A stretch of 64,000 nucleotides of DNA from a virus. The notes beneath the pieces are model-generated. The model did no database searches. It was not told the origin of the DNA and was given only the letters and a program-made list of their open reading frames with translations. Location: positions 116,712-180,711 of the IMG/VR virus record IMGVR_UViG_3300029319_000004. One strand, given 5' to 3'. The position numbers were made by a program, and so were the translations under genes. How positions within the stretch are numbered: position 1 is the stretch's first letter; each line of letters starts with the position of its first letter. This document shows positions 19,831 to 64,000 of the stretch, in pieces.

Positions 19831-20148
19831 ATGGAAGTGTTGCTTCATGCGCTCGTAACCGCGTCGGTGTTTTTACTAGGTGTAGTAGCCGGTGCTCTAA
19901 TAGAGAATGCAAGAATGAAGTATCTAGATAGATTAAAATATCTTGAAAAAACAACACAAGAAATTCTTTTGCCTCTTGCAAACAAGATAAGTCATATAGA
20001 TGCTAGACAAAATTTTAGGCCTCCAGTGAGAGAAACATGGGTTGATTATGAAAAACTAGACCCAGACGAAACACTGGAGTTGCCTAAAGAATATCTAGAA
20101 CAGTTAAACTCAAGAGGTAAAAATGGCGAAGGCAAAGAAGTTAGGTAA
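19831..20148 (+). CDS. Membrane-anchored hypothetical protein (N-terminal TM helix); same frame as SSB
   Basis: MEVLLHALVTASVFLLGVVAGALIE; no SD; frame open back to the SSB stop codon. Confidence 0.7.
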   Translation: MEVLLHALVTASVFLLGVVAGALIENARMKYLDRLKYLEKTTQEILLPLANKISHIDARQNFRPPVRETWVDYEKLDPDETLELPKEYLEQLNSRGKNGEGKEVR

Positions 20149-21238
20149 GCTAAATTTATCAGAGATGCGCAATCTGATTAATAAAAAAGCTGGTATGGAT
20201 GTTGCGCACAATTTAACACAAGATAATCCAACGGAAGTAAAAGACTGGATCCCAACAGGTTCTAGGTGGCTTGATAGTATTATCTGTCGAGGCAAGCCGG
20301 CAGGAATCCCTGTAGGAAAAGTTGTAGAAATCGCTGGACTTGAAGGATCGGGCAAGTCTTATATGGCTGCTCAAATTGCTGCCAATGCTCAGAACAAAGA
20401 CATTGATGTTATTTATTTTGACTCTGAGTCGGCTATTGATCCTACTTTCTTGAAAAATGCTGGTTGCGATCTTGAGCGGCTGCTCTATGTACAAGCTCAG
20501 AGTGTTGAGTTTGTTTTAGAAACAATCGAGGAACTTTTAGGCTCTAATGACAATAGAATGTTGTTTGTCTGGGATAGTCTAGCTCTGACTCCGGCGATCA
20601 GTGATGTTGATGGAGACTTTAACCCTCAGTCATCAATGGCTATGAAGGCTAGAATTTTAGCTAAAGGTATGTCTAAATTGACTGTTCCGATTGCGAACTC
20701 ACAATCAACTTTCTTAGTTCTTAACCAGCTTAAGACCAACATTCCTCAAGGCCCAGCTGCTCGAATTGAGGCTATGACCACTCCTTATATAACTCCCGGT
20801 GGTAAAGCTATGCATTATGCATATTCTCTAAGAATTTGGCTTACTGGTAGGAAAGCAAAAGCTAGCTATATTCAGGATGATCATGGATTTAGAATTGGCT
20901 CTGAAGTAAAGGTTAAACTTAAAAAGAGTCGCTTTGGTACTGAAGGGCGAGAGTGCACTTTTAAAATTGTTTGGGCTGGCAGTGTTGGCATCCAAGACCA
21001 AGAATCTTGGCTTGAGGCTGTAAAGGGATCTAGTAATATCGTTCAGCGAGGCGCCTGGTATGAGCTAGTGTACGAAGATGGTACAACTGAAAAATTTCAA
21101 GCAGCCAAGTGGCTAGAGAAACTTCAAAGTGAGAAGTTTAAAGATAGGGTTCTTCAAATTATGGATGAAGAAATTATCATGCGCTTTGAGAAAAAAGAAG
21201 GCAATGCTGATGATTTCTACAATGTTGATCCCGAATAA
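20123..21238 (+). CDS. recA: RecA/UvsX recombinase
   Basis: IPTGS..LD, GKVVEIAGLEGSGKS (Walker A), YFDSESA, FVWDS, NQLK, TPGGKAM.Y..S.RI. Confidence 0.97.
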   Translation: MAKAKKLGKLNLSEMRNLINKKAGMDVAHNLTQDNPTEVKDWIPTGSRWLDSIICRGKPAGIPVGKVVEIAGLEGSGKSYMAAQIAANAQNKDIDVIYFDSESAIDPTFLKNAGCDLERLLYVQAQSVEFVLETIEELLGSNDNRMLFVWDSLALTPAISDVDGDFNPQSSMAMKARILAKGMSKLTVPIANSQSTFLVLNQLKTNIPQGPAARIEAMTTPYITPGGKAMHYAYSLRIWLTGRKAKASYIQDDHGFRIGSEVKVKLKKSRFGTEGRECTFKIVWAGSVGIQDQESWLEAVKGSSNIVQRGAWYELVYEDGTTEKFQAAKWLEKLQSEKFKDRVLQIMDEEIIMRFEKKEGNADDFYNVDPE

Positions 21239-41532: not shown

Positions 41533-43137
41533 ATGACGAGGTGTATTATGAAAAAGCATTGTCTTTCTGAAGAGCAACTTCAGGAGAAACTATCAAGCGG
41601 CGTTAATAAGTTAGCAGATTGCGTCGCTGTTACATTAGGGCCTAGAGGTCGAAATGTTATGCTAAGAGCAGGCGGAAAGCCTGTAATTACGAAAGATGGC
41701 GTAACTGTTGCCAAGTTTTTTTCAACTGATGATTTATTTGAAGATGCCGCGGCAGAGGTCTTGAAAGAGGTTGCTGACAACACAAATAGTTCTGCTGGCG
41801 ATGGTACAACAACATCGACGGTGTTAGCTCGCGAGATTTTCAACGAAGCTCAAAAGTATATAAGAGCTGGTCATGACCCGCTTCAGATAAAGAAGGGCAT
41901 GGAGAAATCACTTGAGTCAATTATATCTAGACTAAATAAAATATCACAGCCTGTTGAGAGTTTTGAAGAAATAAAAAACGTTGCAACCGTGTCTGCCAAC
42001 AACGATGAAGCAATTGGAAATCTTATTGCCACTGCTGCCGATCAAGCTGGACATGAGGGTGTGGTGTCTGTTGTAGCTGGCCGCACTGAAGATACTAAAT
42101 TAAATTTAGTCGAGGGATTTAAATTTGATGGTGGCTATGCTGCGCAGGCGTTTGTAACTAACAAAAGAAAGAACACGGTAGAATATTCAGAGGCTTTTAT
42201 TTTAGTTACTGAAGAAAAGATTACTCAAGTAGCTCAAATATTACCAGTGCTGGAGCAAGTGGCAAGAGAGGACCGTCCTTTAATTATTGTTGCAGAGTCA
42301 GTAGAGGAACAAGCGCTAGCTGCTTTGATTATGAATACAGTTAGAGGCTCAATGAGGGTTGCCGCAGTAAAGGCGCCTGGATTTGGCCGGGAAAGAAAGG
42401 AGATTCTTTCTGACTTGGCCATGGCTGTCGGTGCTACTTTTGTTACACGAGGGTCGTCACCAAAGCTTGAAGATTTAAAACTAAAGCACCTTGGCAAGGC
42501 TAAGACAATTGAGGTTCAAAAGAACAGTACCACAATTGTTGATGGGAATGGAGACTGGGAGCTAATTGAAGAAAGAATTGAGTCGATTAAATCTGAGATA
42601 AAGCAAACGGAAGACATGAGAGAGTGCAAAAGACTCCAGCACAGAATATCAAGACTTCAAAGTGGCGTTGCTATAATAGAAGTAGGAGCCGCTAGTGAGG
42701 TCGAGATGGTGGAGAAAAAGCACCGCATAGAAGACGCCCTGGAGGCCGTGCGCGCCGCGCAAAGCTCTGGGATTGTGCCAGGGGGTGGCGCTGCTCTTGT
42801 GAGTTGCATTAGTTTCTTGCCAAAGAATTTAAACAACTCGGAGTCATTCGGGCGTGAAGTTTTAAAAAAAGCTATGCTGGCTCCAATCACTCAAATATCA
42901 AAAAACTGTGGTGTTAGTCCAGACCTTGTGATTGATTCTGTGATGAGGCAGAACAAAAGGAAGAAATCCAGCAACTATGGATATAATTTTGTTACTAATA
43001 AAGTGGTTGATATGTTTGAAGAGGGCATCATAGACCCAGCAAAGGTAACAATCACTGCTCTAAAAAATGCAGTGTCCGTTGTGTCGACTCTTCTCACAAC
43101 CGCCACGTGCATTATTCAGGAGCAAAATGAAAGCTAA
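41533..43137 (+). CDS. groEL: Chaperonin GroEL
   Basis: TLGPRGRNV, ITKDGVTVAK, AGDGTTT, VSANND, KAPGFG, EKKHRIEDAL, GIVPGGG, GIIDPAKV. Confidence 0.98.
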   Translation: MTRCIMKKHCLSEEQLQEKLSSGVNKLADCVAVTLGPRGRNVMLRAGGKPVITKDGVTVAKFFSTDDLFEDAAAEVLKEVADNTNSSAGDGTTTSTVLAREIFNEAQKYIRAGHDPLQIKKGMEKSLESIISRLNKISQPVESFEEIKNVATVSANNDEAIGNLIATAADQAGHEGVVSVVAGRTEDTKLNLVEGFKFDGGYAAQAFVTNKRKNTVEYSEAFILVTEEKITQVAQILPVLEQVAREDRPLIIVAESVEEQALAALIMNTVRGSMRVAAVKAPGFGRERKEILSDLAMAVGATFVTRGSSPKLEDLKLKHLGKAKTIEVQKNSTTIVDGNGDWELIEERIESIKSEIKQTEDMRECKRLQHRISRLQSGVAIIEVGAASEVEMVEKKHRIEDALEAVRAAQSSGIVPGGGAALVSCISFLPKNLNNSESFGREVLKKAMLAPITQISKNCGVSPDLVIDSVMRQNKRKKSSNYGYNFVTNKVVDMFEEGIIDPAKVTITALKNAVSVVSTLLTTATCIIQEQNES

Positions 43138-47188: not shown

Positions 47189-47276
47189 GGCCGAGTGGTG
47201 GAATTGGCATACACAACAGACTTAAAATCTGTCGCCCGTATTGGGCTTGCGGGTTCGAGTCCCGCCTCGGCTACCA
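47189..47276 (+). tRNA. trnL-TAA: tRNA-Leu (TAA)
   Basis: GGCCGAG/CTCGGCT acceptor stem, ACAGA-CTTAAAA-TCTGT anticodon arm, long variable arm, GGTTCGAGTCC, encoded CCA. Confidence 0.96.
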
Positions 47277-47282
47277 TTACAA

Positions 47283-47355
<73 letters not shown>

Positions 47356-47365
47356 TATTATACAC

Positions 47366-47442
47366 GGGCTCTTAGCTCAGTTGGTTAGAGCCCCCCGCTC
47401 ATAACGGGGTAGTCCTCGGTTCGAGTCCGAGAGAGCCCACCA
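47366..47442 (+). tRNA. tRNA with CAT anticodon (likely Ile2/lysidine; elongator Met not excluded)
   Basis: GGGCTCT/AGAGCCC; CCCCG-CTCATAA-CGGGG; paired 1:72 so not initiator; encoded CCA. Confidence 0.92.
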
Positions 47443-48510: not shown

Positions 48511-48587
48511 GCGCCCGTAGCTCAGCTGGATAGAGCAACGGCCTTCTAAGCCGTAGGTCACAGGTTCGAACCCTGTCGGGCGTGCCA
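48511..48587 (+). tRNA. trnR-TCT: tRNA-Arg (TCT)
   Basis: GCGCCCG/CGGGCGT; ACGGC-CTTCTAA-GCCGT; GGTTCGAACCC; encoded CCA. Confidence 0.96.
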
Positions 48588-53319: not shown

Positions 53320-53679
53320 ATGATGGGAACACGTTCAAATGTCTATGTTGAAACAGAGCCGGGGACATATGTTGGCACTTACTGCCACTACGATGGCTAT
53401 CCTAGTCATATGTTTCCAACGCTGACAGCGATTGACAAGGACATCTTACTTACACATGTTCTTATCGCCGCTCCGCAAGGTGGTTTCCGCATCCTTCAGG
53501 AGCGAGGCACTGAGTATCTTAGCGATTACGCGAATCCTTGTGTGCTTGAGAATCCTGCTGACGAAGACTGGGGTCCAGATTACGTCTACATTAAGTGCTA
53601 CGATGGCGGCGTTAAGTGGCGAAATACTTTTGATGGCTGCTGGCGAAAAAGTTATGTCGAGTCTGTGGACATTGACTAA
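53320..53679 (+). CDS. Conserved phage early protein (YCHYDGYP motif)
   Basis: MGTRS.V........GTYCHYDGYP ... DYVY. Confidence 0.75.
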   Translation: MMGTRSNVYVETEPGTYVGTYCHYDGYPSHMFPTLTAIDKDILLTHVLIAAPQGGFRILQERGTEYLSDYANPCVLENPADEDWGPDYVYIKCYDGGVKWRNTFDGCWRKSYVESVDID

Positions 53680-53873
53680 TGGAACAACAGTTTGACATTG
53701 GAGACTTGGTTTTGTACTTGCTTGATGGAGACATAGGCATGGTAATGGACAAGAACATTGGTTCAAATGAGCCGTACTATGTCGAATGGTACATCCATCC
53801 AGACCAATCTGGCTGGCACAGTACACTTCATTCAGAGTATGACCATCAAGTGATGGTGCCCCTCGGTGGCTAG
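53679..53873 (+). CDS. SH3/KOW-like family protein
   Basis: FDIGDLV...DIGMV.......YYVEWY. Confidence 0.75.
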   Translation: MEQQFDIGDLVLYLLDGDIGMVMDKNIGSNEPYYVEWYIHPDQSGWHSTLHSEYDHQVMVPLGG

Positions 53874-54051
53874 AATAAACGCTGGAGACTTGGTTGAGGG
53901 TAAAAGACATCTTAACAGTCGCAAGGGTATTGTTCTTGACTTATATGAGTCCGATGCTGGCACGCCTTATATCGAGGTCTACTGGTTCGACTTAAGCGAG
54001 CGCACCTGGCATGATGAGCTTGAGGTGGAGTTGATCAGTGAAAGTCGGTGA
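53866..54051 (+). CDS. SH3/KOW-like family protein
   Basis: INAGDLV...GIVL...IEVYWFD....WH.ELEVELISESR. Confidence 0.8.
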   Translation: MARINAGDLVEGKRHLNSRKGIVLDLYESDAGTPYIEVYWFDLSERTWHDELEVELISESR

Positions 54052-54229
54052 TGTTGTTAGATTAAAAGAGGACTACCAAATAAAGGGTGTTGACTATGGG
54101 ATAGGCATCGTTGTGTCCACCCAAGATTATCCTGAAGAGGGCTTTACCTCGCATAAGATTGTGTGGAGCAACACTGACTTTTCATTTCACAGCACAAAAG
54201 AGCTGGAGTTGATTAGTGAAAACAAGTAG
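54038..54229 (+). CDS. SH3/KOW-like family protein
   Basis: MKVGDVV...GIGIVV...HKIVW....F....LELISENK. Confidence 0.85.
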   Translation: MKVGDVVRLKEDYQIKGVDYGIGIVVSTQDYPEEGFTSHKIVWSNTDFSFHSTKELELISENK

Positions 54230-54476
54230 TTGGCACTTTTATGTTTTACTCTGTGCTGATGGTTCTTATTATGCTGGTGTAACGACGGACACAGAAAGAA
54301 GGCTACACGAGCACAATCATACAAAGCGTGGCGCGAAGTATACTAGAAGAAGAAGGCCCACGAAGATTGTTTTGTTAGAGCCCCATCCTGATCGTTCATC
54401 AGCCATGAAGGCTGAGAACAGCTTCAAGCGTCTGACTCGAAAGCAGAAAGAAGAGAAGATAAATGAAAGTCGGTGA
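54216..54476 (+). CDS. GIY-YIG nuclease (UPF0213/Slx1-like)
   Basis: WHFYVLLCADGSYYAGVTTD.ERRL.EHN...GAKYTR.RRP...V..E....S.A.K.E..FKRL.R.QK. Confidence 0.92.
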   Translation: MKTSSWHFYVLLCADGSYYAGVTTDTERRLHEHNHTKRGAKYTRRRRPTKIVLLEPHPDRSSAMKAENSFKRLTRKQKEEKINESR

Positions 54477-54651
54477 TTTGGTTTTGCGTACTGATGTTTT
54501 GGTTAGGCTCTCGCTGGGCGCGGGCATTATAGTGGCTAAAAATACGAATAGAGACGGCACTCTCTTCTATCAAGTTAAATGGTCTCGCGAGAACTGCGAC
54601 ATGTACTGGTACGATGGGCCAGAGCTGGAGGTTATCAATGAAAGTAGGTGA
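54463..54651 (+). CDS. SH3/KOW-like family protein
   Basis: MKVGDLV...GAGIIV...YQVKW.....WY....LEVINESR. Confidence 0.85.
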   Translation: MKVGDLVLRTDVLVRLSLGAGIIVAKNTNRDGTLFYQVKWSRENCDMYWYDGPELEVINESR

Positions 54652-54802
54652 TATTGTTACAGTAAAAGGCAGAGAGGAATATGGTGCCGGTAAGATTGTG
54701 AGGTTCTATGCCAACCAGGGCACCATGCTGATTGAGTTTCCCAAAGAGGAGAGCATGATTTACTGCGATTACTCAGCGGTGGAGAGTCATGAAAGTCGGT
54801 GA
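54638..54802 (+). CDS. SH3/KOW-like family protein
   Basis: MKVGDIV...GAGKIV...MLIEF....HESR; true ATG at 54638. Confidence 0.85.
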   Translation: MKVGDIVTVKGREEYGAGKIVRFYANQGTMLIEFPKEESMIYCDYSAVESHESR

Positions 54803-54947
54803 TTTGATTGAGTTTAATAAATACATTGGTCTGGTTATTGAAGCCAGTGAGTGGGCGACGTTAGTTCAGTGGCTCGATGATGGAGAGATTGAAGACGTCA
54901 GTAACTATTCACCCATAAGCATAAGGGTTGTCAGTGAAAGTCGGTGA
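54789..54947 (+). CDS. SH3/KOW-like family protein (52 aa)
   Basis: Not in track. MKVGDLIEFNKYIGLVIEASEWATLVQWLDDGEIEDVSNYSPISIRVVSESR*. Confidence 0.85.
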   Translation: MKVGDLIEFNKYIGLVIEASEWATLVQWLDDGEIEDVSNYSPISIRVVSESR

Positions 54948-55134
54948 TTTAGTAAATAACACACACGCCCTTGACCGAAGCGGTTTGGGTCTTATAGTAG
55001 AAGTGAAAGTTCGTGACCCGGAGGCCCCTCCCGGTTGCGATTACAGAGTACATTGGATTAACCCGCCGACTGGATGCCCTGATTATTCATGGAACAGCGC
55101 GGCATGGCTGGAGATTATAAATGAGCAAGAATAA
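54934..55134 (+). CDS. SH3/KOW-like family protein
   Basis: GTG start; KVGDLV...GLGLIV...YRVHW....W....LEIINEQE. Confidence 0.85.
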   Translation: MKVGDLVNNTHALDRSGLGLIVEVKVRDPEAPPGCDYRVHWINPPTGCPDYSWNSAAWLEIINEQE

Positions 55135-55962: not shown

Positions 55963-56124
55963 ATGATTGATGACCAACAGAGGTTGCGAAACCTCCAAAA
56001 GCTACACGATTCTCTTTCTTTCGCCTTGGAAGATGTTAAAAAAGAGATTAAATACATTATGCTTCAGCATAGCGCTGCCCCTGATTCCTTTTCCGAGGAC
56101 AAGGAGAAGTTCATAGCACCATGA
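55963..56124 (+). CDS. Small hypothetical protein
   Basis: Promoter at 55919 and SD AGGAG; MIDDQQRL... Confidence 0.65.
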   Translation: MIDDQQRLRNLQKLHDSLSFALEDVKKEIKYIMLQHSAAPDSFSEDKEKFIAP

Positions 56125-56381
56125 ACATGAAAGAGTGTAAGCGACTTAAGCCCGGTGCGATGGTGACTGAGGCTTTCGCCCCCGAGCCATGTCGAACACT
56201 TGGCATGGTTCTTCACAAAGAGTACGTTTTGGGAGAGCATTATGCTAGGGTGCTTGGAGGTAAGAAGCAGGCTCGATATGATCTATATGTTCATTGGTTT
56301 GAGCCGCCTCAATGGCGAAGGAATAAAGACAACCCTGACAAACTTCAATGCTGGGAAGTTAAGTTGCTGAAGAATGGGTAG
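56121..56381 (+). CDS. SH3/KOW-like family protein (divergent)
   Basis: LKPGAMV...LGMVL...YDLYVHWF....W.VKLL. Confidence 0.65.
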   Translation: MNMKECKRLKPGAMVTEAFAPEPCRTLGMVLHKEYVLGEHYARVLGGKKQARYDLYVHWFEPPQWRRNKDNPDKLQCWEVKLLKNG

Positions 56382-57794: not shown

Positions 57795-57998
57795 ATGGAA
57801 GGACGACCCCCGAAACCACGCCTTGGCGACCTAGTAAGGATTAGAAAAGACTATCCTAACGAAGAGGCGGCAGGTATGATTGGCCTAGTGACAAAGACAG
57901 TAGGCATCGAGTGCATCGTTCAACCGGCTGGAATACATTCACAAAATCCACTTGCCAAGCCATGGTGGCTAGCTCGCAGTGACCTAGAGGTGCTCTAA
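57795..57998 (+). CDS. SH3/KOW-like family protein (leaderless candidate)
   Basis: RLGDLVRI...IGLV....CIV....WW....DLEVL; ATG 6 nt after -10. Confidence 0.75.
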   Translation: MEGRPPKPRLGDLVRIRKDYPNEEAAGMIGLVTKTVGIECIVQPAGIHSQNPLAKPWWLARSDLEVL

Positions 57999-58192
57999 TG
58001 TTTGATTGGTCAATGAAACCCCCCAAGCCAACCTATAACTACTACTGCGGCTCGTGCGGCTGCAAGTACATCAACAAACCTGGCGCTACGCGGTCGGCTT
58101 GTTCAGCCAACTGTTACGCATGTGGTAGTAGCCGGATTATCCGCTACGAGTGGGCCACGGACGGAGAGGGCCAACAAAATGAAAGTCGGTGA
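57998..58192 (+). CDS. Small zinc-ribbon protein carrying the NESR junction
   Basis: CGSCGC...CSANCYACGS; ends QQNESR. Confidence 0.7.
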   Translation: MFDWSMKPPKPTYNYYCGSCGCKYINKPGATRSACSANCYACGSSRIIRYEWATDGEGQQNESR

Positions 58193-58361
58193 TTTAGTTA
58201 GCGTAAAAACAAAGCACCATGGCACAAAGCTGGGTGTGCTAGTTCAGAGTTACCACCGTTACGATTGGAAGGGTGACGAGTGGCGTGTAAAAATGCTGGA
58301 CCATCCGCGTGACGTACATGCTGCTGAGTGCGATCTGGAGGTCATTAGTGAAAGTCGGTGA
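58179..58361 (+). CDS. SH3/KOW-like family protein
   Basis: MKVGDLVSV...LGVLV...WRVKM....DLEVISESR. Confidence 0.85.
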   Translation: MKVGDLVSVKTKHHGTKLGVLVQSYHRYDWKGDEWRVKMLDHPRDVHAAECDLEVISESR

Positions 58362-58503
58362 TATTGTTAAGTATTTTGGTGATGTTGCTGTTGTGCTGTC
58401 GCGACCAAACCAAGGTGGCACCGTGCAGGTTCTTAGCTCCCAGAAGGACAAAGTAGTTTGGTTTGTCACGTCAGAGTGTGAGGTTATCAGTGCAAGTCGG
58501 TGA
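58348..58503 (+). CDS. SH3/KOW-like family protein
   Basis: GTG start; KVGDIV...AVVL...VQVL...W....CEVISASR. Confidence 0.85.
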   Translation: MKVGDIVKYFGDVAVVLSRPNQGGTVQVLSSQKDKVVWFVTSECEVISASR

Positions 58504-58693
58504 TCTAGTTAAACTTTTGAACGACCCAGAGGTCTACAGAAACAATGCAGAGATTCCTCCCGATGCCGTCGGCCTTGTCGTTGAACACGACGAGCCTTGT
58601 TTTCTGGCTGGCCCTCTAAAATCTATGTGGGTCCAGTGGAATGGCCGATGGGACTGGGATTCGATGTATGTCGAGGACTTAGAAAAACTTTGA
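58490..58693 (+). CDS. SH3/KOW-like family protein
   Basis: GTG start; QVGDLV...VGLVV...WVQW....Y..DLEKL. Confidence 0.85.
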   Translation: MQVGDLVKLLNDPEVYRNNAEIPPDAVGLVVEHDEPCFLAGPLKSMWVQWNGRWDWDSMYVEDLEKL

Positions 58694-58758
58694 TCAAAGT
58701 GTTTACTATTTTTTTCTCGTGAATACATTAAAGACGTACCCGGACAATGGAGACGACC

Positions 58759-59406
58759 ATGGGACACTACGGACGACGCTACAATCGACAGCCTCGACAG
58801 AACAATCCTGAGCTTGTTGCTCGCATTGAGAAAACAGTCGCACAAGGTGTCTCAACATTGACCGACTGGGAGCGCAGCTTCCTAAGTTCTTTGCTGGAGT
58901 CTGCTAACAAGTGGGGTCGCCTGACTGCAAAGCAACATGAGGTTTATCAACGCATCGAGAAGAAGTCCGATCCGGCTTTTCAATCCGCACGCAAAGCATG
59001 GAATGATTCTTGGGATGATGAAAAGCGGACCATGCTTGTCTTTGCTGCGAACTATTACAAAGCTAACCCACCTTACTACGGTGATGTTGCTAGCAGAATC
59101 CTTAATGATCCCAACTACATACCATCTGAAAAGCTATACCGCAAGATGGTTGAGAACAAGTACGTCCAGCGAGCGATGGCAAACGCCGCTGCGATGCCTC
59201 TTTACGCGGTAGGCACGATGGTTACGATTCGTGACTCGTTGAATGTTCCCTTGCGGAGCCTCCGAGGCCAGGATGTACTTGTAGTAGACGTCGAGACGGA
59301 TGTCTTACACGCTACCAGGGGCTCACGTTCCTACACTGTCCTGCCCATTGGCGCAGGAGAAACTGTAGCGATTCAGGAGCGTTGGCTTAAAAAGTCAAGA
59401 AAGTAA
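58759..59406 (+). CDS. Hypothetical protein (C-terminal SH3-like segment)
   Basis: SD GGAG before ATG 58759; LTDWERSFL.SL...LTAKQ; YAVGTMV...V.V.ERWL. Confidence 0.75.
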   Translation: MGHYGRRYNRQPRQNNPELVARIEKTVAQGVSTLTDWERSFLSSLLESANKWGRLTAKQHEVYQRIEKKSDPAFQSARKAWNDSWDDEKRTMLVFAANYYKANPPYYGDVASRILNDPNYIPSEKLYRKMVENKYVQRAMANAAAMPLYAVGTMVTIRDSLNVPLRSLRGQDVLVVDVETDVLHATRGSRSYTVLPIGAGETVAIQERWLKKSRK

Positions 59407-59502
59407 AAAAAAGTGTTTACCAGCCTAGACTGGTTCCTAAGTTGTTTATGTCGGAAGGCCCGACATCAAATATGTTTCCCCTTAGCCTGACACGGAGTTA
59501 TC

Positions 59503-60573
59503 ATGGCTATCGATTTCAAGACTTTTACTTCTGTCGCCCCCCATGTCCTCGCGGTCAAGAAGCCGCTTATGCTCCGTGGTCGTCACGGTGTAGGCAAGTC
59601 TGAGCTTGTCTATCAGGTTGCATCCACTATGGATCTTCCTGTCGTTGAGCGTCGCGCATCGCAGATGACTGAGGGCGACCTCGTTGGCCTTCCTCGCACG
59701 GATGGCGACGTGACTTCGTTTTGTGCGCCTGACTGGCTGGACGAGTGCTGCAACAACGCACGCTTGCTCTTCCTCGATGAGGTTGACCGTGCCATTCCAG
59801 AGGTGCGCCAGGGCATCTTCGAGCTTACCGACTCTCGCAAGATTTTCGGTAACTACCTCCACCCCGATACCGTCGTGATTGCTGCCGTCAACGGTGGCGA
59901 GCATGGCTCACAGTATCAGGTGGGCGAGATGGACCCTGCGGAGCTTGACCGCTGGACCGTCTTCGACGTGGAGCCTACGACCGAGGACTGGCTCGACTGG
60001 GCCAAGGGCAACGTGGCCACTGAGGTCTGGGACTTCATCAACCAGAACCGCTCTCACTTGGAGCATGGCGAGGACTATGAGCCAAACAAGGTTTACCCTT
60101 CGCGACGTTCTTGGAAGCGTCTGAACGATTGTCTCGTGTCCGCTGGGATGCTCGGTGTCGAGGACCACAACCCTGTCATCTTCCACCTTGCCACTGGCTT
60201 TGTCGGTTTCGAGGCTGCTGTATCCTTCAACGACTTCGTGAAGAACTACGAGCGACAGGTCACGGTCGAAATGATCCTCGATGATGGCAAGGTCAATAAG
60301 ACTTCTGACTTTAACATCAATGAGCACTGCGCTCTCATCGAGAAGATGGAGTCCGTCGAGGCTTTCAACGAGCCACTCACTGATGATCAGTGCAAGAACC
60401 TTGCCAACTACTTCGTAGCGCTCCCCTCCGAGGCTGTCATGAAGTTGTGGCAGGTGCTTGGCAAGGGCAACATCGACAACGTGACCAAGTTTCACAAGGC
60501 TCAGGCCGACAATGGCGAGACGGTCGCAGGCAAGCTAGTCACTATCCTGACTGGCAAGTCGAATGAGTCATAG
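59503..60573 (+). CDS. MoxR-type AAA+ ATPase
   Basis: GRHGVGKS Walker A, GDLVGLP, LLFLDEVDRA Walker B, IAAVN, MDPAELDRW, PSRRSW. Confidence 0.95.
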   Translation: MAIDFKTFTSVAPHVLAVKKPLMLRGRHGVGKSELVYQVASTMDLPVVERRASQMTEGDLVGLPRTDGDVTSFCAPDWLDECCNNARLLFLDEVDRAIPEVRQGIFELTDSRKIFGNYLHPDTVVIAAVNGGEHGSQYQVGEMDPAELDRWTVFDVEPTTEDWLDWAKGNVATEVWDFINQNRSHLEHGEDYEPNKVYPSRRSWKRLNDCLVSAGMLGVEDHNPVIFHLATGFVGFEAAVSFNDFVKNYERQVTVEMILDDGKVNKTSDFNINEHCALIEKMESVEAFNEPLTDDQCKNLANYFVALPSEAVMKLWQVLGKGNIDNVTKFHKAQADNGETVAGKLVTILTGKSNES

Positions 60574-60579
60574 GGCTCA

Positions 60580-60611
60580 GGCGCAGGGAGGCATGGCTCA
60601 CAGATGCCTCA
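60580..60611 (+). ncRNA. Conserved structured RNA element (H-type pseudoknot candidate), copy 2
   Basis: GGC-GCAGG-GAGGCAT-G-GCT-CACAG-ATGCCTC. Confidence 0.65.
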
Positions 60612-60870
60612 ACTCTTTGAAATCATGGAGGTTTCAAATGCTATAACTACTAACTTATTGATTTTATTATAAAAGCTCCCAGCAGCGACGATGGAGCCAA
60701 GGTATTGGACCCGCACTTTTTGCCTGTAAGTGTGCGGAATGTAAGAAAAAACCAAAACAGGATAGCACGGTCGCTCTGCTAGAAAACGACCCTTCGCTGC
60801 TTTTTTTATTTACTCTGCACGTTACGTGCCTATGTTGCTTGTGTACCCAACGACGACGACGGAGGACACA

Positions 60871-62151
60871 ATGTCCGACTTCAATCTTAACGACCATGTT
60901 TACCGACTTCTTCAGTCGGAGCCCTTCTTCGCTGCACTCTCGCGGCGCATCGAGAAAAAGATGAACAAGTCCATCCCGACCGCTGGTGTGCGCGTCAACG
61001 AGGATGGCTACTTTGAGATGGTCTACAATCCAGACTTCTTCGAGCCACTCACCGACAAGCAGCGCGCTGGTGTGCTGGTCCACGAGTTCTATCACCTCGT
61101 CTTCGAGCATGTCACTGGTCGTCTTCCCGATGAGCTAGCCGGTGTCATGCAGGGCAAGCCTTCGCCTGAGCAGGCGCAGAAGTTCAAGCTGTGGAACATC
61201 GCAGCAGATCTCTCTATCAACTATCATATCGGCGCAGACAATCTGCCTGAGAAGTGCTGCATCCCTGGCGGTCCTATGTTCGAGGACATGCCCGGTGACA
61301 AGACCGCTGAGTGGTATTACGACAAACTGATTCAGAAGGTCGAGGAGCAGCAACAGCAGAGTCAAGGCCAAGGCGAACCAGGCGAGGGTGACGGTCAGGG
61401 CGGAGGCTCAGGCACACCCGGTGACCAGCCATTCGATCCTGATGCAGCAGGCCAGTTCGACTCGCATGACGAGTGGGGCGAGGGTCAGGCCAATGAGATC
61501 GCCCAAGAGGCCCTGGACATCGCCAAGGAGCGACTCAAGGAGGCCGTGAAGGATGCTGCCTCGGAGTCATCCAGCAAGGGCTGGGGCTCCGTCTCTGCGT
61601 CCTGCCGCAAGGAGATCATGGAGCGTCTCACGTCCAAGGTTGACTGGCGCAAGGTGCTTCGCTACTTCGTCAAGACCTCGCAGCGTGCCAACAAGCGCAG
61701 CACGCCCAAGCGCCTGAACCGTCGCTACGCCTACGTCCACCCAGGTCGCAAGGTCAATCGCACTGCCAACATCGCAGTCAGCATCGACCAGTCTGGCTCT
61801 GTGTCTGACTCCATGCTCGCTGCCTTCTATGCTGAACTGAACAAACTGGCAGACCTTGCCACATTCACCGTCATTCCCTTCGACACCCGCGTCGCAGAGG
61901 ACAAGGTGTTCGTTTGGAAGAAGGGCCAGAGTCATCCTCAGAAGCGCTACATGTACGGCGGAACCTGCTTCAACGCTCCCACTGAGTACGTCAACAGCAA
62001 GGGCAACTTCGACGGTCACATCGTCCTGACGGACATGGAGGCCCCTAAGCCCAAGCCCAGCAAGTGCCAGAGGATGTGGATGACCACGAGCTATCACGCG
62101 CAGCGTCCCTACTTCGCAACCAGCGAGCGCATCATCGGCATTGATGAATGA
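60871..62151 (+). CDS. Metallopeptidase-like (HExxH) plus vWA domain protein (DUF2201-type partner of MoxR)
   Basis: PTAGV, YNPDF, VLVHEFYHLV, WNIAAD..IN, IDQSGS (MIDAS), FDT, GGT.F, VLTD. Confidence 0.92.
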   Translation: MSDFNLNDHVYRLLQSEPFFAALSRRIEKKMNKSIPTAGVRVNEDGYFEMVYNPDFFEPLTDKQRAGVLVHEFYHLVFEHVTGRLPDELAGVMQGKPSPEQAQKFKLWNIAADLSINYHIGADNLPEKCCIPGGPMFEDMPGDKTAEWYYDKLIQKVEEQQQQSQGQGEPGEGDGQGGGSGTPGDQPFDPDAAGQFDSHDEWGEGQANEIAQEALDIAKERLKEAVKDAASESSSKGWGSVSASCRKEIMERLTSKVDWRKVLRYFVKTSQRANKRSTPKRLNRRYAYVHPGRKVNRTANIAVSIDQSGSVSDSMLAAFYAELNKLADLATFTVIPFDTRVAEDKVFVWKKGQSHPQKRYMYGGTCFNAPTEYVNSKGNFDGHIVLTDMEAPKPKPSKCQRMWMTTSYHAQRPYFATSERIIGIDE

Positions 62152-62249
62152 TAGAGTGGGGCATGATTATCGTTAAGGCCATGGGCCTCTATGCCCTGAT
62201 GGGCCTCGTGACACTGATCACAATCAAATACATTTCAGATAAAGATTAA
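62148..62249 (+). CDS. Small membrane protein (33 aa)
   Basis: Not in track. ATGA overlap; hydrophobic. Confidence 0.45.
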   Translation: MIEWGMIIVKAMGLYALMGLVTLITIKYISDKD

Positions 62250-62341
62250 TCATTCCGGGTGCTTGTAAGTTTTTTACTCGCGCCTGTTTACCCGCACGTA
62301 TCCGTGCCTATGTTATAACTGTTCCAAGCAGAGGAGAGAAC

Positions 62342-62530
62342 ATGACCCGCAAAGATTTTCAGATGATTGCAGATGTTGTTAAGACTATCGAAGACCACCA
62401 CACCCGCCACACAGTCGCGATGAACTTCGCGGTCAAGCTGAAGGATGTGAATCCTCGCTTTGATGTCAGCCGATTCGTCGGTGCGTGCAACAGCTACGCG
62501 AAGCCGGATTCAGTTGAGGTGAAGTTCTAA
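62342..62530 (+). CDS. Conserved small early phage protein
   Basis: MTRKDFQMIA ... NPRFD..RF..AC; own promoter and SD. Confidence 0.8.
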   Translation: MTRKDFQMIADVVKTIEDHHTRHTVAMNFAVKLKDVNPRFDVSRFVGACNSYAKPDSVEVKF

Positions 62531-62661
62531 TGGGAAAGTTGCTCATGCTGCTCGCCGTCTTCACGGCGGGCTACCTCTGGGGCGACGTCGCCCTGGCACA
62601 CGCTATCGATCTCTGGCAAGATTTGTCCGAGACATCCCGAATCAAGCTGGAGAACCCATAA
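62530..62661 (+). CDS. Small membrane protein (43 aa)
   Basis: Not in track. TAATG overlaps at both ends; KLLMLLAVFTAGYLWG. Confidence 0.6.
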   Translation: MGKLLMLLAVFTAGYLWGDVALAHAIDLWQDLSETSRIKLENP

Positions 62662-62888
62662 TGGCAAGAGACATTCCAAGAGTTATGAAACACGCTGACG
62701 CAGTGCGTCACTTTGAAGAAGAGATGATGCCCGGTATCCGAGCCATCGAGGCCACACAATCTGGCAACCCTGACTGGCCTCGCCGCTGCGAGGCTTGGAA
62801 CAACTGGACCGATGCCTTGTGCAAAAACGAGCAGATCTCTGACTGGCAGTATGAGAACTGGTCGCACCCTCCAAGTTGTGGAGATTAA
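62661..62888 (+). CDS. Conserved small early phage protein
   Basis: EAWNNWTD.LCK..QISDWQY.NW..P. Confidence 0.75.
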   Translation: MARDIPRVMKHADAVRHFEEEMMPGIRAIEATQSGNPDWPRRCEAWNNWTDALCKNEQISDWQYENWSHPPSCGD

Positions 62889-63048
62889 AGGTGGAATCGA
62901 TTCTGCTCTATATCTTTGTCTGGCTGGTGCTAGCTCAGATGGTTGAGCAATAGTTTTTTGCTCGTGCGTGCATAGTTTTTTGCTCGCGCCCCTTTACACA
63001 CGTGAAACGGTGCTTATTGTATAGGTGTCGAAAAGACAAGGAGACGAC

Positions 63049-63348
63049 ATGCGTAAGAATCAGAAGATTTCAGTCCGAGGCGACCACAAGCGAGCAGCGC
63101 GAAACGAGGGCAAGCCCCGTATCGGTCAGGTGCGAATCCCAGCACGCAACATGCCTCACACAATGTTTCGTCGTGCATGGCTCGGTGATGGGACACAAGT
63201 TGCTATCGCTCGGTCCAACGATCGTTTTATCTGTGGGCATTTTGACGCTCACGAGCAGCCCCTCTGTAGGGCAACCGTCTTCGAGGGCGGCTCTGCTGAG
63301 TCTCGCGCCCTTCTCTGGCTTAAGCGCCAGAGGATGATTAATGGCTGA
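63049..63348 (+). CDS. Basic hypothetical protein
   Basis: Promoter at 62993 and SD GGAG. Confidence 0.65.
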   Translation: MRKNQKISVRGDHKRAARNEGKPRIGQVRIPARNMPHTMFRRAWLGDGTQVAIARSNDRFICGHFDAHEQPLCRATVFEGGSAESRALLWLKRQRMING

Positions 63349-63577
63349 TTGGCCACCCGACGTGGGCGACTTGGTGCGAGTGATCGCGCCCGGTCATGAC
63401 CCACCGGGTCCAGCGCTTGTTGTCGAGAAGGACAAGGGCGGATGGCTCAGGCTCAAATGGGCAGTCGGAGAGCCTGAAGGCTACGATGGATACGACAGAT
63501 GGTATCCACCGGCAAAAGTCATAATGATTTCAAGAGCTTGTGAGAAAGATGAACAATCTTTCAAAAAAAACACCTGA
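63341..63577 (+). CDS. SH3/KOW-like family protein
   Basis: PDVGDLVRV...ALVV...LRLKW....WY....V.MIS. Confidence 0.75.
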   Translation: MADWPPDVGDLVRVIAPGHDPPGPALVVEKDKGGWLRLKWAVGEPEGYDGYDRWYPPAKVIMISRACEKDEQSFKKNT

Positions 63578-63641
63578 CCCCCTTGTCTGGGCCAAAACGG
63601 TTCTTACTTTATAGGTGTCCAAGAGAGACGGAGACGACGAC

Positions 63642-63863
63642 ATGACGAACCAAGCACCCATCCACCCCTCTGAGCGCGTCGAGATCGGCATATGCGATAG
63701 CGACGACTTCTGCGTGACCCCTGGCCAGCGCCGCAAGTTGAACGTCCACTGGGCACAATCTGCGGTGGGCTACTGGGCACCCGTCCTGGCCACCTGCAAG
63801 GGCTGTGCCCGCCGAGCCCGGAAGGCGCGCCGCGCAAGGTGCGAAGCAAAAGTGCGTAAATAA
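63642..63863 (+). CDS. Basic Cys-containing hypothetical protein
   Basis: Promoter at 63583 and SD GGAG; CDSDDFC...CKGC; Arg-rich tail. Confidence 0.6.
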   Translation: MTNQAPIHPSERVEIGICDSDDFCVTPGQRRKLNVHWAQSAVGYWAPVLATCKGCARRARKARRARCEAKVRK

Positions 63864-63986
63864 GTACCCAAGGTGCGAACCAAAGTACGCACTTGAGGCT
63901 GATTTGGCCATGTTGGCGAGGCTACTGAAATCGCCAAGATCTTGTAATCATTAGGAAAACAAAAAACTTTCCCAAAACGCCAAAGT

Positions 63987-64000
63987 TGGCACGCGACTTG
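63987..64000 (+). promoter_or_regulatory. Possible sigma54 (-24/-12) promoter, cut by window end
   Basis: TGGCACG-cgac-TTG matches TGGCACG-N4-TTGC as far as the sequence goes. Confidence 0.45.

Follow-up and report, generated by a model that had tools for sequence, protein, structure and literature searches.

In the lambdoid phages, linker or boundary sequences, the short homologies at module borders of the Susskind-Botstein modular theory, are said to guide exchange between unrelated segments. Another arrangement of neighbouring genes is translational coupling of the ATGA type, in which the upstream stop lies next to or within the downstream start region and the Shine-Dalgarno (SD) sequence is buried in the upstream coding sequence. 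In the hyperplastic regions of T4-type phages, gene borders may carry promoter-early stem-loops (PeSLs), intergenic elements composed of a sigma-70 early promoter and a terminator stem-loop (PMC2839356, PMC4122927). Herein, we analyse arrays of small overlapping genes joined by a conserved 14-nt junction in the final 64 kb (positions 116,712 to 180,711; "the window" below) of the complete 180,711-bp IMG/VR virus record IMGVR_UViG_3300029319_000004. With a probability of about 60%, we think that this is a dual-coding, translational-coupling junction that doubles as a portable microhomology.

Between 53.3 and 58.7 kb of the window, every gene lies on the + strand and abuts or overlaps its neighbour, as judged from the sequence and the list of open reading frames (ORFs). 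Eight ORFs of the window open with (A/G)TG-(A/C)AA-GT(C/A)-GGT-GA. The overlap created in this way is exactly 14 nt long and holds the start of the next ORF together with, in another frame, the TGA of the preceding one, hidden inside GGT-GA; this upstream TGA sits 11-13 nt past the first bases of the junction, so that the stop is found 11 nt downstream of the start. One frame of the junction encodes the N-terminal M-K/Q-V-G-D, while the other encodes the tail of the preceding protein, (S/N)-(E/A)-S-R-stop. An earlier note on this DNA had placed such 14-mers at 54038, 54463, 54638, 54789, 54934, 58179, 58348 and 58490, and all of them are present, the last one as a C-variant. The same-length variants that it named at 54216 and 55121 are genuine 14-nt overlaps, with upstream ORFs ending at 54229 and 55134, and its cassette lengths of 150-260 bp agree with the junction-to-junction distances of 145-247 bp in the window. 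Its description of the junction as usually preceded by CTGGAG(G/T/A)T was too strict: exact CTGGAG stands before only four of the ten junctions in the window, whereas the SD core does precede most junctions of relatives (GGAG or GAGG 4-18 nt upstream in 80% of 250 junctions, compared with 11% in a control window). Chance is excluded as a source of the repeats, since at up to two mismatches the motif matches 10 times against 1.55 expected, and none of 100 shuffles reached 10. Genome-wide, all eight matches fall on one strand at positions 170749-175214 of the genome, i.e. in ~4.5 kb of 180.7 kb; the reverse strand of the whole genome contained no junction match, and a reversed control pattern gave none either.

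The features concerned are listed below in window coordinates. "Family gene" stands for a member of the family of predicted SH3-like proteins described in the next paragraphs, and numbers beginning with L denote related loci.

53679..53873, + strand: family member with an N-terminal extension, its internal G-D motif coded GGA GAC (hidden Markov model (HMM) E 4e-16)
53866..54051, + strand: family gene with the tail ...ELISESR-stop in junction 54038 (ORF list, HMM search)
54038..54051, + strand: junction copy 1, GTG type; next start and previous TGA
54038..54229, + strand: family gene with the tail ...ISENK-stop
54216..54229, + strand: variant 14-nt overlap, only the first 6 nt (GTGAAA) matching the junction; 5' boundary of the GIY-YIG gene
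54216..54476, + strand: GIY-YIG nuclease-domain gene of 86 amino acids (aa) inside the array (Pfam PF01541, E 1.5e-16), its tail ...INESR-stop ending in a junction; the sole GIY-YIG gene of the genome
54463..54476, + strand: junction copy 2, ATG type; the relative L023 has an additional 148-bp cassette here
54463..54651, + strand: family gene used for the structure model
54638..54651, + strand: junction copy 3, GTA variant, the upstream frame still coding Arg
54638..54802, + strand: family gene
54789..54802, + strand: junction copy 4
54789..54947, + strand: family cassette, absent without a scar from the 97%-identical L023 and from L010
54934..54947, + strand: junction copy 5
54934..55134, + strand: family gene with the tail ...INEQE-stop; orthologues occupy other array positions in relatives
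55121..55134, + strand: variant 14-nt overlap leading into a non-family gene
56121..56381, + strand: distant family member, 86 aa; L023 has a 6-codon mini-ORF instead
57998..58192, + strand: Cys-rich, zinc-ribbon-like gene with an extended tail ...QNESR-stop ending in a junction; its orthologues in L010 and L014 have no such tail
58179..58192, + strand: junction copy 6; L023 and L024 have an additional 181-bp cassette here
58179..58361, + strand: family gene
58348..58361, + strand: junction copy 7
58348..58503, + strand: family gene with the tail ...ISASR-stop
58490..58503, + strand: junction copy 8, CAA variant, combining an MQVGD start with an ISASR-stop tail
58490..58693, + strand: final family gene of the second sub-array, ending without a junction
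20123..21238, + strand: RecA-family recombinase gene (PF00154, E 2e-36)

As in ATGA-type coupling, the stop of the junction lies within the start region, and the SD sequence is placed in the upstream coding sequence (80%). The difference is that the overlap is fixed at 14 nt, the start precedes the stop, and the entire sequence is conserved, not the signals alone.

To see how far this arrangement extends, we turned to relatives, and all of these comparisons rest on metagenome assemblies. Flanking anchor proteins retrieved 14 IMG/VR loci and 80 marine metagenome contigs (TARA, GOS, others), which made up a first set of ~95 loci; a wider set comprised 175 related marine loci with 1.32 Mb of sequence. 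The 14-mer is present in most loci of the first set, even where the anchor proteins are only 40-50% identical (range 40-63%), and the wider set holds 819 copies on the coding strand and 0 on the other. A single locus may carry up to 17 junctions. Adjacent junctions are spaced at 1 mod 3 in 391 of 433 cases, with a median of 169 nt. The two-junction pattern occurs in at least 120 IMG/VR stretches, many of them in genomes of 185-200 kb. Neither megablast nor tblastn with the region and the anchors gave a match among 50,697 phage records, so there is no close cultured phage in that collection, and a literature search on the junction motif found no paper. The arrays belong to an uncultured marine phage clade with genomes of ~185 kb. 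The only tested gene with a match in cultured phages was a GroEL-like chaperonin gene at 41533-43137 of the window, which is ~42% identical to those of Bacteroides, Flavobacterium, Cellulophaga and Vibrio phages.

The ORFs of the arrays are paralogs of ~50-70 aa (typically ~55 aa), whose bodies are only ~22-26% identical. Their common motifs are M-K-V-G-D-L-V, a G-x-G-I-V-V strand, a V-x-W strand and L-E-V-I-S-E-S-R-stop. An AlphaFold (AF2) model of the 54463-54651 product, based on an alignment of 52 sequences, predicts a five-stranded barrel with a predicted local distance difference test (pLDDT) score of 86.7. According to Foldseek, the model resembles the SH3-like barrels of KOW, Tudor and R67 DHFR at the fold level only, with template modelling (TM) scores of 0.67-0.74, i.e. 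~0.7, at E ~0.02. What sets the array proteins apart from these small barrels is the absence of sequence-family membership (no named family was found for them in Pfam, PHROGs or the protein atlas) and their hypervariable loops. On this model, the array genes are predicted to form a large, fast-diverging family of SH3-like barrels, in which M-K-V-G-D and S-E-S-R are termini lying outside the barrel, and the L-E-V strand encodes the SD sequence.

The earlier note had taken the junctions for recombination points between gene cassettes. The junction is indeed found on over 200 cassette bodies of dissimilar sequence, as well as on a few foreign genes, but it is mainly the N- and C-terminal coding sequence of the family itself: 705 of the 726 ORFs that open with the junction (97%) are family members, and its portability to foreign genes is the exception. 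In the window, the non-family genes that use it are the GIY-YIG gene (54216-54476) and the zinc-ribbon-like gene (57998-58192). In the reverse-complemented locus L136, a DUF2061-like transmembrane ORF at 1752-1952 starts with MKVGD and ends with ...ESR-stop, so that a foreign body is framed by both half-junctions; further non-family bodies with a junction start lie at L128 36-533, L170 7300-7452 and L064 1595-1780. We also considered the GIY-YIG gene as a nuclease of the array and rejected it, since only 4 of the ~95 loci of the first set carry such a gene; we treat it as a passenger.

Indels between closely related genomes also bear on the role of the junction. Over a length of 18.7 kb, the identity between the window and L023 is ~97%, and five gene-sized indels set them apart. 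Three of them are single cassettes bounded by two junction copies, with both breakpoints inside the 14-mer: the left homology ends at the start codon, and the right homology resumes just past GGTGAT. Single-base differences between the junction copies map the crossover to within the 14-mer. As for the additional cassettes, they are not recent copies but dissimilar members of the family. Among pairs of at least 85% identity, there were 47 indel events with 94 boundaries, 32 of which lie at -20 to +25 of a junction, an interval that takes up 3.0% of aligned positions; junction-type borders represent 18% of gene borders, and against this share the excess has a binomial p of 2e-4, the events being not fully independent. 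In an independent locus set, 11 of 20 indel boundaries were at junctions versus 9.7%. Junction-bounded events are base-exact, the overlaps of high-scoring segment pairs (HSPs) being 19-37 nt long and spanning the repeat, and apparent replacements with junction bounds were also seen. Breakage within the junction, as proposed in the earlier note, is thus found for cassette-sized indels between 85-99% identical genomes, and it leaves no scar.

Gene order in the arrays is not conserved among relatives either. Five cassettes that follow one another as A B C D E in L010 are arranged as E A D C B in L012; L109 and L136 show one neighbouring pair in opposite order; and the run 54463-54638-54789-54934 of the window is reversed in L136. 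Recent horizontal transfer of single cassettes is not claimed, as no short high-identity blocks stand out among distant relatives (at best 87.7% against a background of ~75%).

Other gene borders of the clade behave in a comparable way. Repeat-flanked indels outside the arrays were observed between L046/L047, L049/L079, L094/L102, L052/L076 and L050/L100, as well as between L023 19889-20073 and the window at 62332-62338; an example is GGAGGCATAA. Such direct repeats at non-array indels indicate that microhomology between gene borders is used generally in the clade as a way to gain and lose genes. A non-junction deletion of the 56121-56381 gene left a 6-codon ORF in L023 (13716-13740), which retains both overlaps, ATGA upstream and ATG...TAA downstream; selection appears to have favoured a deletion that left the chain of translation whole. 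Mini-ORF remnants opening with the junction are also found at other loci, and, together with the 6-codon ORF, they suggest that an unbroken translation chain is under selection. Scars of this kind remain where no repeat was used.

With these data in hand, the junction can be placed among the described systems. Like a PeSL, it is a short motif that recurs at the borders of genes where small ORFans abound, and there it flanks indels and replacements between close relatives and bears expression signals (SD, start) for the next gene. It differs from them in lying inside two overlapping reading frames, with neither a promoter excess nor a hairpin, and in that it would couple translation, whereas a PeSL restarts transcription; moreover, mini-circles are a feature that has been shown for PeSLs. 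The likeness to lambdoid linkers is that of a short sequence at the borders of non-homologous neighbours that coincides with mosaic breakpoints. Unlike those linkers, the junction is a 14-nt dual-coding overlap that is repeated up to 17 times per locus, mostly within one paralogous family, and hundreds of times across the clade. Overall, the junction is nearest to the phage linker and PeSL theme, and is new as a dual-frame coding overlap.

What holds the 14 nt together can be read from codon usage. Information is high only between the start codon and the stop, and conservation ends sharply at the edges of the overlap. Just outside it, third codon positions vary freely both upstream (L, V, I) and downstream (L, V), the G of the SD's GAG being the exception, and the equally conserved Val at codon 7 takes all four codons (GTA 121, GTT 105, GTG 72, GTC 21). 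Each base of the overlap occupies a first or second codon position in one of the frames, and only at position 9 is there a substitution (C to A) that is synonymous in both. Where an upstream ORF is present (n = 200), the Val codon at position 9 is GTC in 152 cases, GTA in 41, GTG in 7 and GTT in 0; both C and A (193/200) keep the Arg of the upstream frame, and GTT is seen only where the upstream ORF does not overlap. After loss of the upstream ORF, GGT usage drops from 100% to ~70%, and in N-terminally extended members, where G-D is internal, GGT accounts for only 38% and GTC for 20% of the respective codons. Because internal G-D motifs use free codons and position 9 follows the Arg pattern, it is the joint that is constrained rather than the protein motif, with selection acting on the upstream frame. 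The sharp edges of conservation suggest that this constraint stems primarily from dual coding and translational coupling. Position-9 G, which gives the tail ...GG-stop, co-occurs with position-6 G: AAG or CAG is found in 5 of 7 GTG junctions of the overlap type and in 17 of 193 with GTC or GTA.

The synonymous positions of the junction are conserved far beyond family codon usage, even without an overlapping upstream gene, contrary to the possibility, left open in the earlier note, that protein constraint explains the motif fully. AAA-GT(C/A)-GGT is used by 78% of M-K-V-G-D starts, compared with 6.3% expected from the codon usage of family bodies, and starts without an overlapping upstream ORF, the frame being open for only 4-32 codons, are still exact in 60% of cases (p = 6e-32). 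These excesses, like that of C over A at position 9, hold in 217 representatives dissimilar from one another. These non-overlap copies are perhaps best read as decaying relics of recent array contexts, which would mean that neighbours turn over faster than synonymous sites decay. A nucleotide-level function or gene conversion may also act at the junction. The K/Q variant clusters by contig (p<0.0002), and other positions hardly do so. Junction variants tend to be uniform per contig: all are CAA in L025, all are ATG-AAA-GTC in L043 and L044, and GTA prevails in L083 and L049. Such uniformity hints at local homogenisation or recent tandem expansion, and the evidence for concerted evolution of the junctions is suggestive without being decisive.

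It could be argued that all of this is a by-product: the motif would represent conserved paralog termini locked by overlapping frames, recombination would be random and illegitimate, and events at gene borders would be those that survive, with no mechanistic role for the 14-mer. Conservation confined to the overlap, selection for Arg in the upstream frame (frame B), the 97% family share and the modest enrichment per boundary are all in line with such a view. Random joins, however, fit poorly with base-exact events whose HSP overlaps span the repeat, and with the mini-ORF scars left where no repeat was used; non-junction indels also carry direct repeats of 10-23 nt, so that homology matters there too. 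Besides, nucleotides are conserved beyond protein need where the upstream ORF is absent. We therefore regard the by-product view as unlikely.

The exact nucleotides kept at 60% of the starts that lack dual coding could also be understood if the 14-mer and its SD sequence were an RNA-level operator co-regulating the family, either as a common site bound by a translational repressor or cut by an RNase of the phage, or as a special context for initiation. The motif is always at the initiation region and on one strand only, and an SD-like GGTGAT follows at +10. Loss of the upstream ORF is nevertheless followed by a drift toward body codon usage (GGT declines and GTT appears), variants that keep the upstream-frame Arg are left unexplained, and no RNA structure or candidate regulator was identified: folding of 60 junction windows gave a mean z of 0.0 against shuffles, with no hairpin. 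Of the explanations weighed here, an operator seems to us the least probable.

The same folding result, with a conserved 14-nt block that has no partner arm, bears on the comparison with integrons. Both consist of small cassettes, most of them promoterless, that lie on the same strand (here the + strand) and vary in content as well as in order. Promoter-like sites in the arrays are not in excess (6 versus 9.3 expected), and neither are terminators. In contrast to integrons, the junction arrays have no IntI-type recombinase, attC hairpin or attI/Pc platform; their cassettes are paralogs, and exchange would proceed via microhomology. Profile searches of the complete 180.7-kb genome matched neither tyrosine (PF00589) nor serine (PF00239) recombinases, and found no RecT, ERF, Rad52, integrase or resolvase. 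For homologous recombination, they found a single protein in the genome, the RecA-family one encoded at 20123-21238; the phage RecA suggested in the earlier note therefore exists, as a candidate only. A Chi-like reading of the upstream GCTGGAGG was dropped, as this word has only seven forward-strand copies in the whole genome and a single one in the array. Integron membership thus fails on the defining features. Of the earlier proposal of recombination points in an integron-style array, the breakpoints in the junction and the scrambled order stand, whereas the integron framing, with neither recombinase nor folded junction, does not.

In a stronger version, a dedicated cassette system of the integron kind would have selected the junction as its recombination signal and would keep it for exchangeability; cassettes would be excised as circles, and a nuclease or recombinase might recognise the 14-mer. 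Persistence of synonymous-site conservation without dual coding, the excess of C at the doubly synonymous site, the clustering of K/Q by contig, which suggests homogenisation, the occasional foreign body framed by both half-junctions (as in L136) and the location of a GIY-YIG gene in the array would all suit such a system. It is hard to reconcile with the lack of recombination enzymes and of junction structure, with the rarity of GIY-YIG and with the 97% family share. Furthermore, the start and stop codons mark the exact limits of the conserved block, as would not be expected of a homology tract, and other boundaries recombine via plain SD repeats. A dedicated system of this kind is, in our opinion, very doubtful.

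Returning to the dual-coding junction with a portable microhomology, we might outline the following scenario. The 14-mer is the overlapping stop/start joint of same-strand, polycistronic arrays of predicted SH3-like genes, and double coding together with the start and stop signals would be the main force holding its sequence. Ribosomes terminating at TGA would restart 11 nt upstream, and the L-E-V strand of the preceding gene encodes, at a suitable distance, the SD sequence of the next one. It follows from the sequence that, with units of 1 mod 3 and a stop and start in each joint, any joint-by-joint exchange gives intact genes; hence, the identical 14-17 nt could act as portable microhomology. 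Cassettes would in this way be deleted, and probably duplicated, imported and reordered, at the joint without a scar. The likely mechanism is replication slippage or template switching, or else short-homology recombination between co-infecting relatives.

Several points weigh against this scenario. Per gene boundary, the excess of indels at junctions is only ~2-fold and is confounded by the dispensability of tiny genes. The junction is not the sole breakpoint, as other gene-sized indels carry SD/stop/start direct repeats of 10-23 nt. The window-specific cassette 54789-54947 has orthologues at 44-62% aa identity in distant relatives, so the differences between close pairs may all be deletions; indeed, if the ancestral array was larger, deletions can account for every one of them, apparent replacements included. 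A length of 14-17 nt is short for RecA-type strand exchange. Dual coding leaves unexplained both the 60% exact nucleotides at starts without overlap and the ~4:1 preference for C over A at position 9, where codon usage predicts near parity; this residual conservation calls for a rapid turnover of neighbours, for gene conversion or for some additional function at the nucleotide level. The reliance on metagenome assemblies belongs here as well.

Some features of the surroundings deserve a brief comment. GC content is ~37-44% over most of the window and 51-55% in its final 6 kb (58000-64000), with the arrays on the rising slope at 46-48%; in keeping with the local GC, the small genes use codons richer in GC than the average of the genome. 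A tRNA cluster (Leu-TAA, Asn-GTT, Met-CAT) lies at 47189-47442, and a separate tRNA-Arg(TCT) gene at 48511-48587 is 90-95% identical across relatives with proteins ~55-63% identical.

It is tempting to suppose that the arrays form a clade-wide, self-maintaining exchange system for a hypervariable library of SH3-like binders. Gene conversion, lineage-level selection or a site-recognising factor would maintain the universal dual-frame junction without change, so that any cassette may move between co-infecting phages while being translated, as a recombinase-free counterpart of the integron. We hold this extension to be improbable.

Finally, our results touch upon the old debate on phage mosaics, in which homologous exchange at short conserved linkers is opposed to random illegitimate joins filtered by selection. 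In this clade, one defined 14-nt linker has been replicated naturally hundreds of times, and single cassettes distinguish many pairs of nearly identical genomes; thus the question becomes countable in silico and testable with recoded junctions. The analysis also flags a very large, unnamed family of tiny phage proteins, predicted to be SH3-like. The design of their genes is compact, with a stop, a start, both protein termini and an exchange point in one short sequence, and it suggests how gene arrays that are scar-free and translationally coupled might be built.

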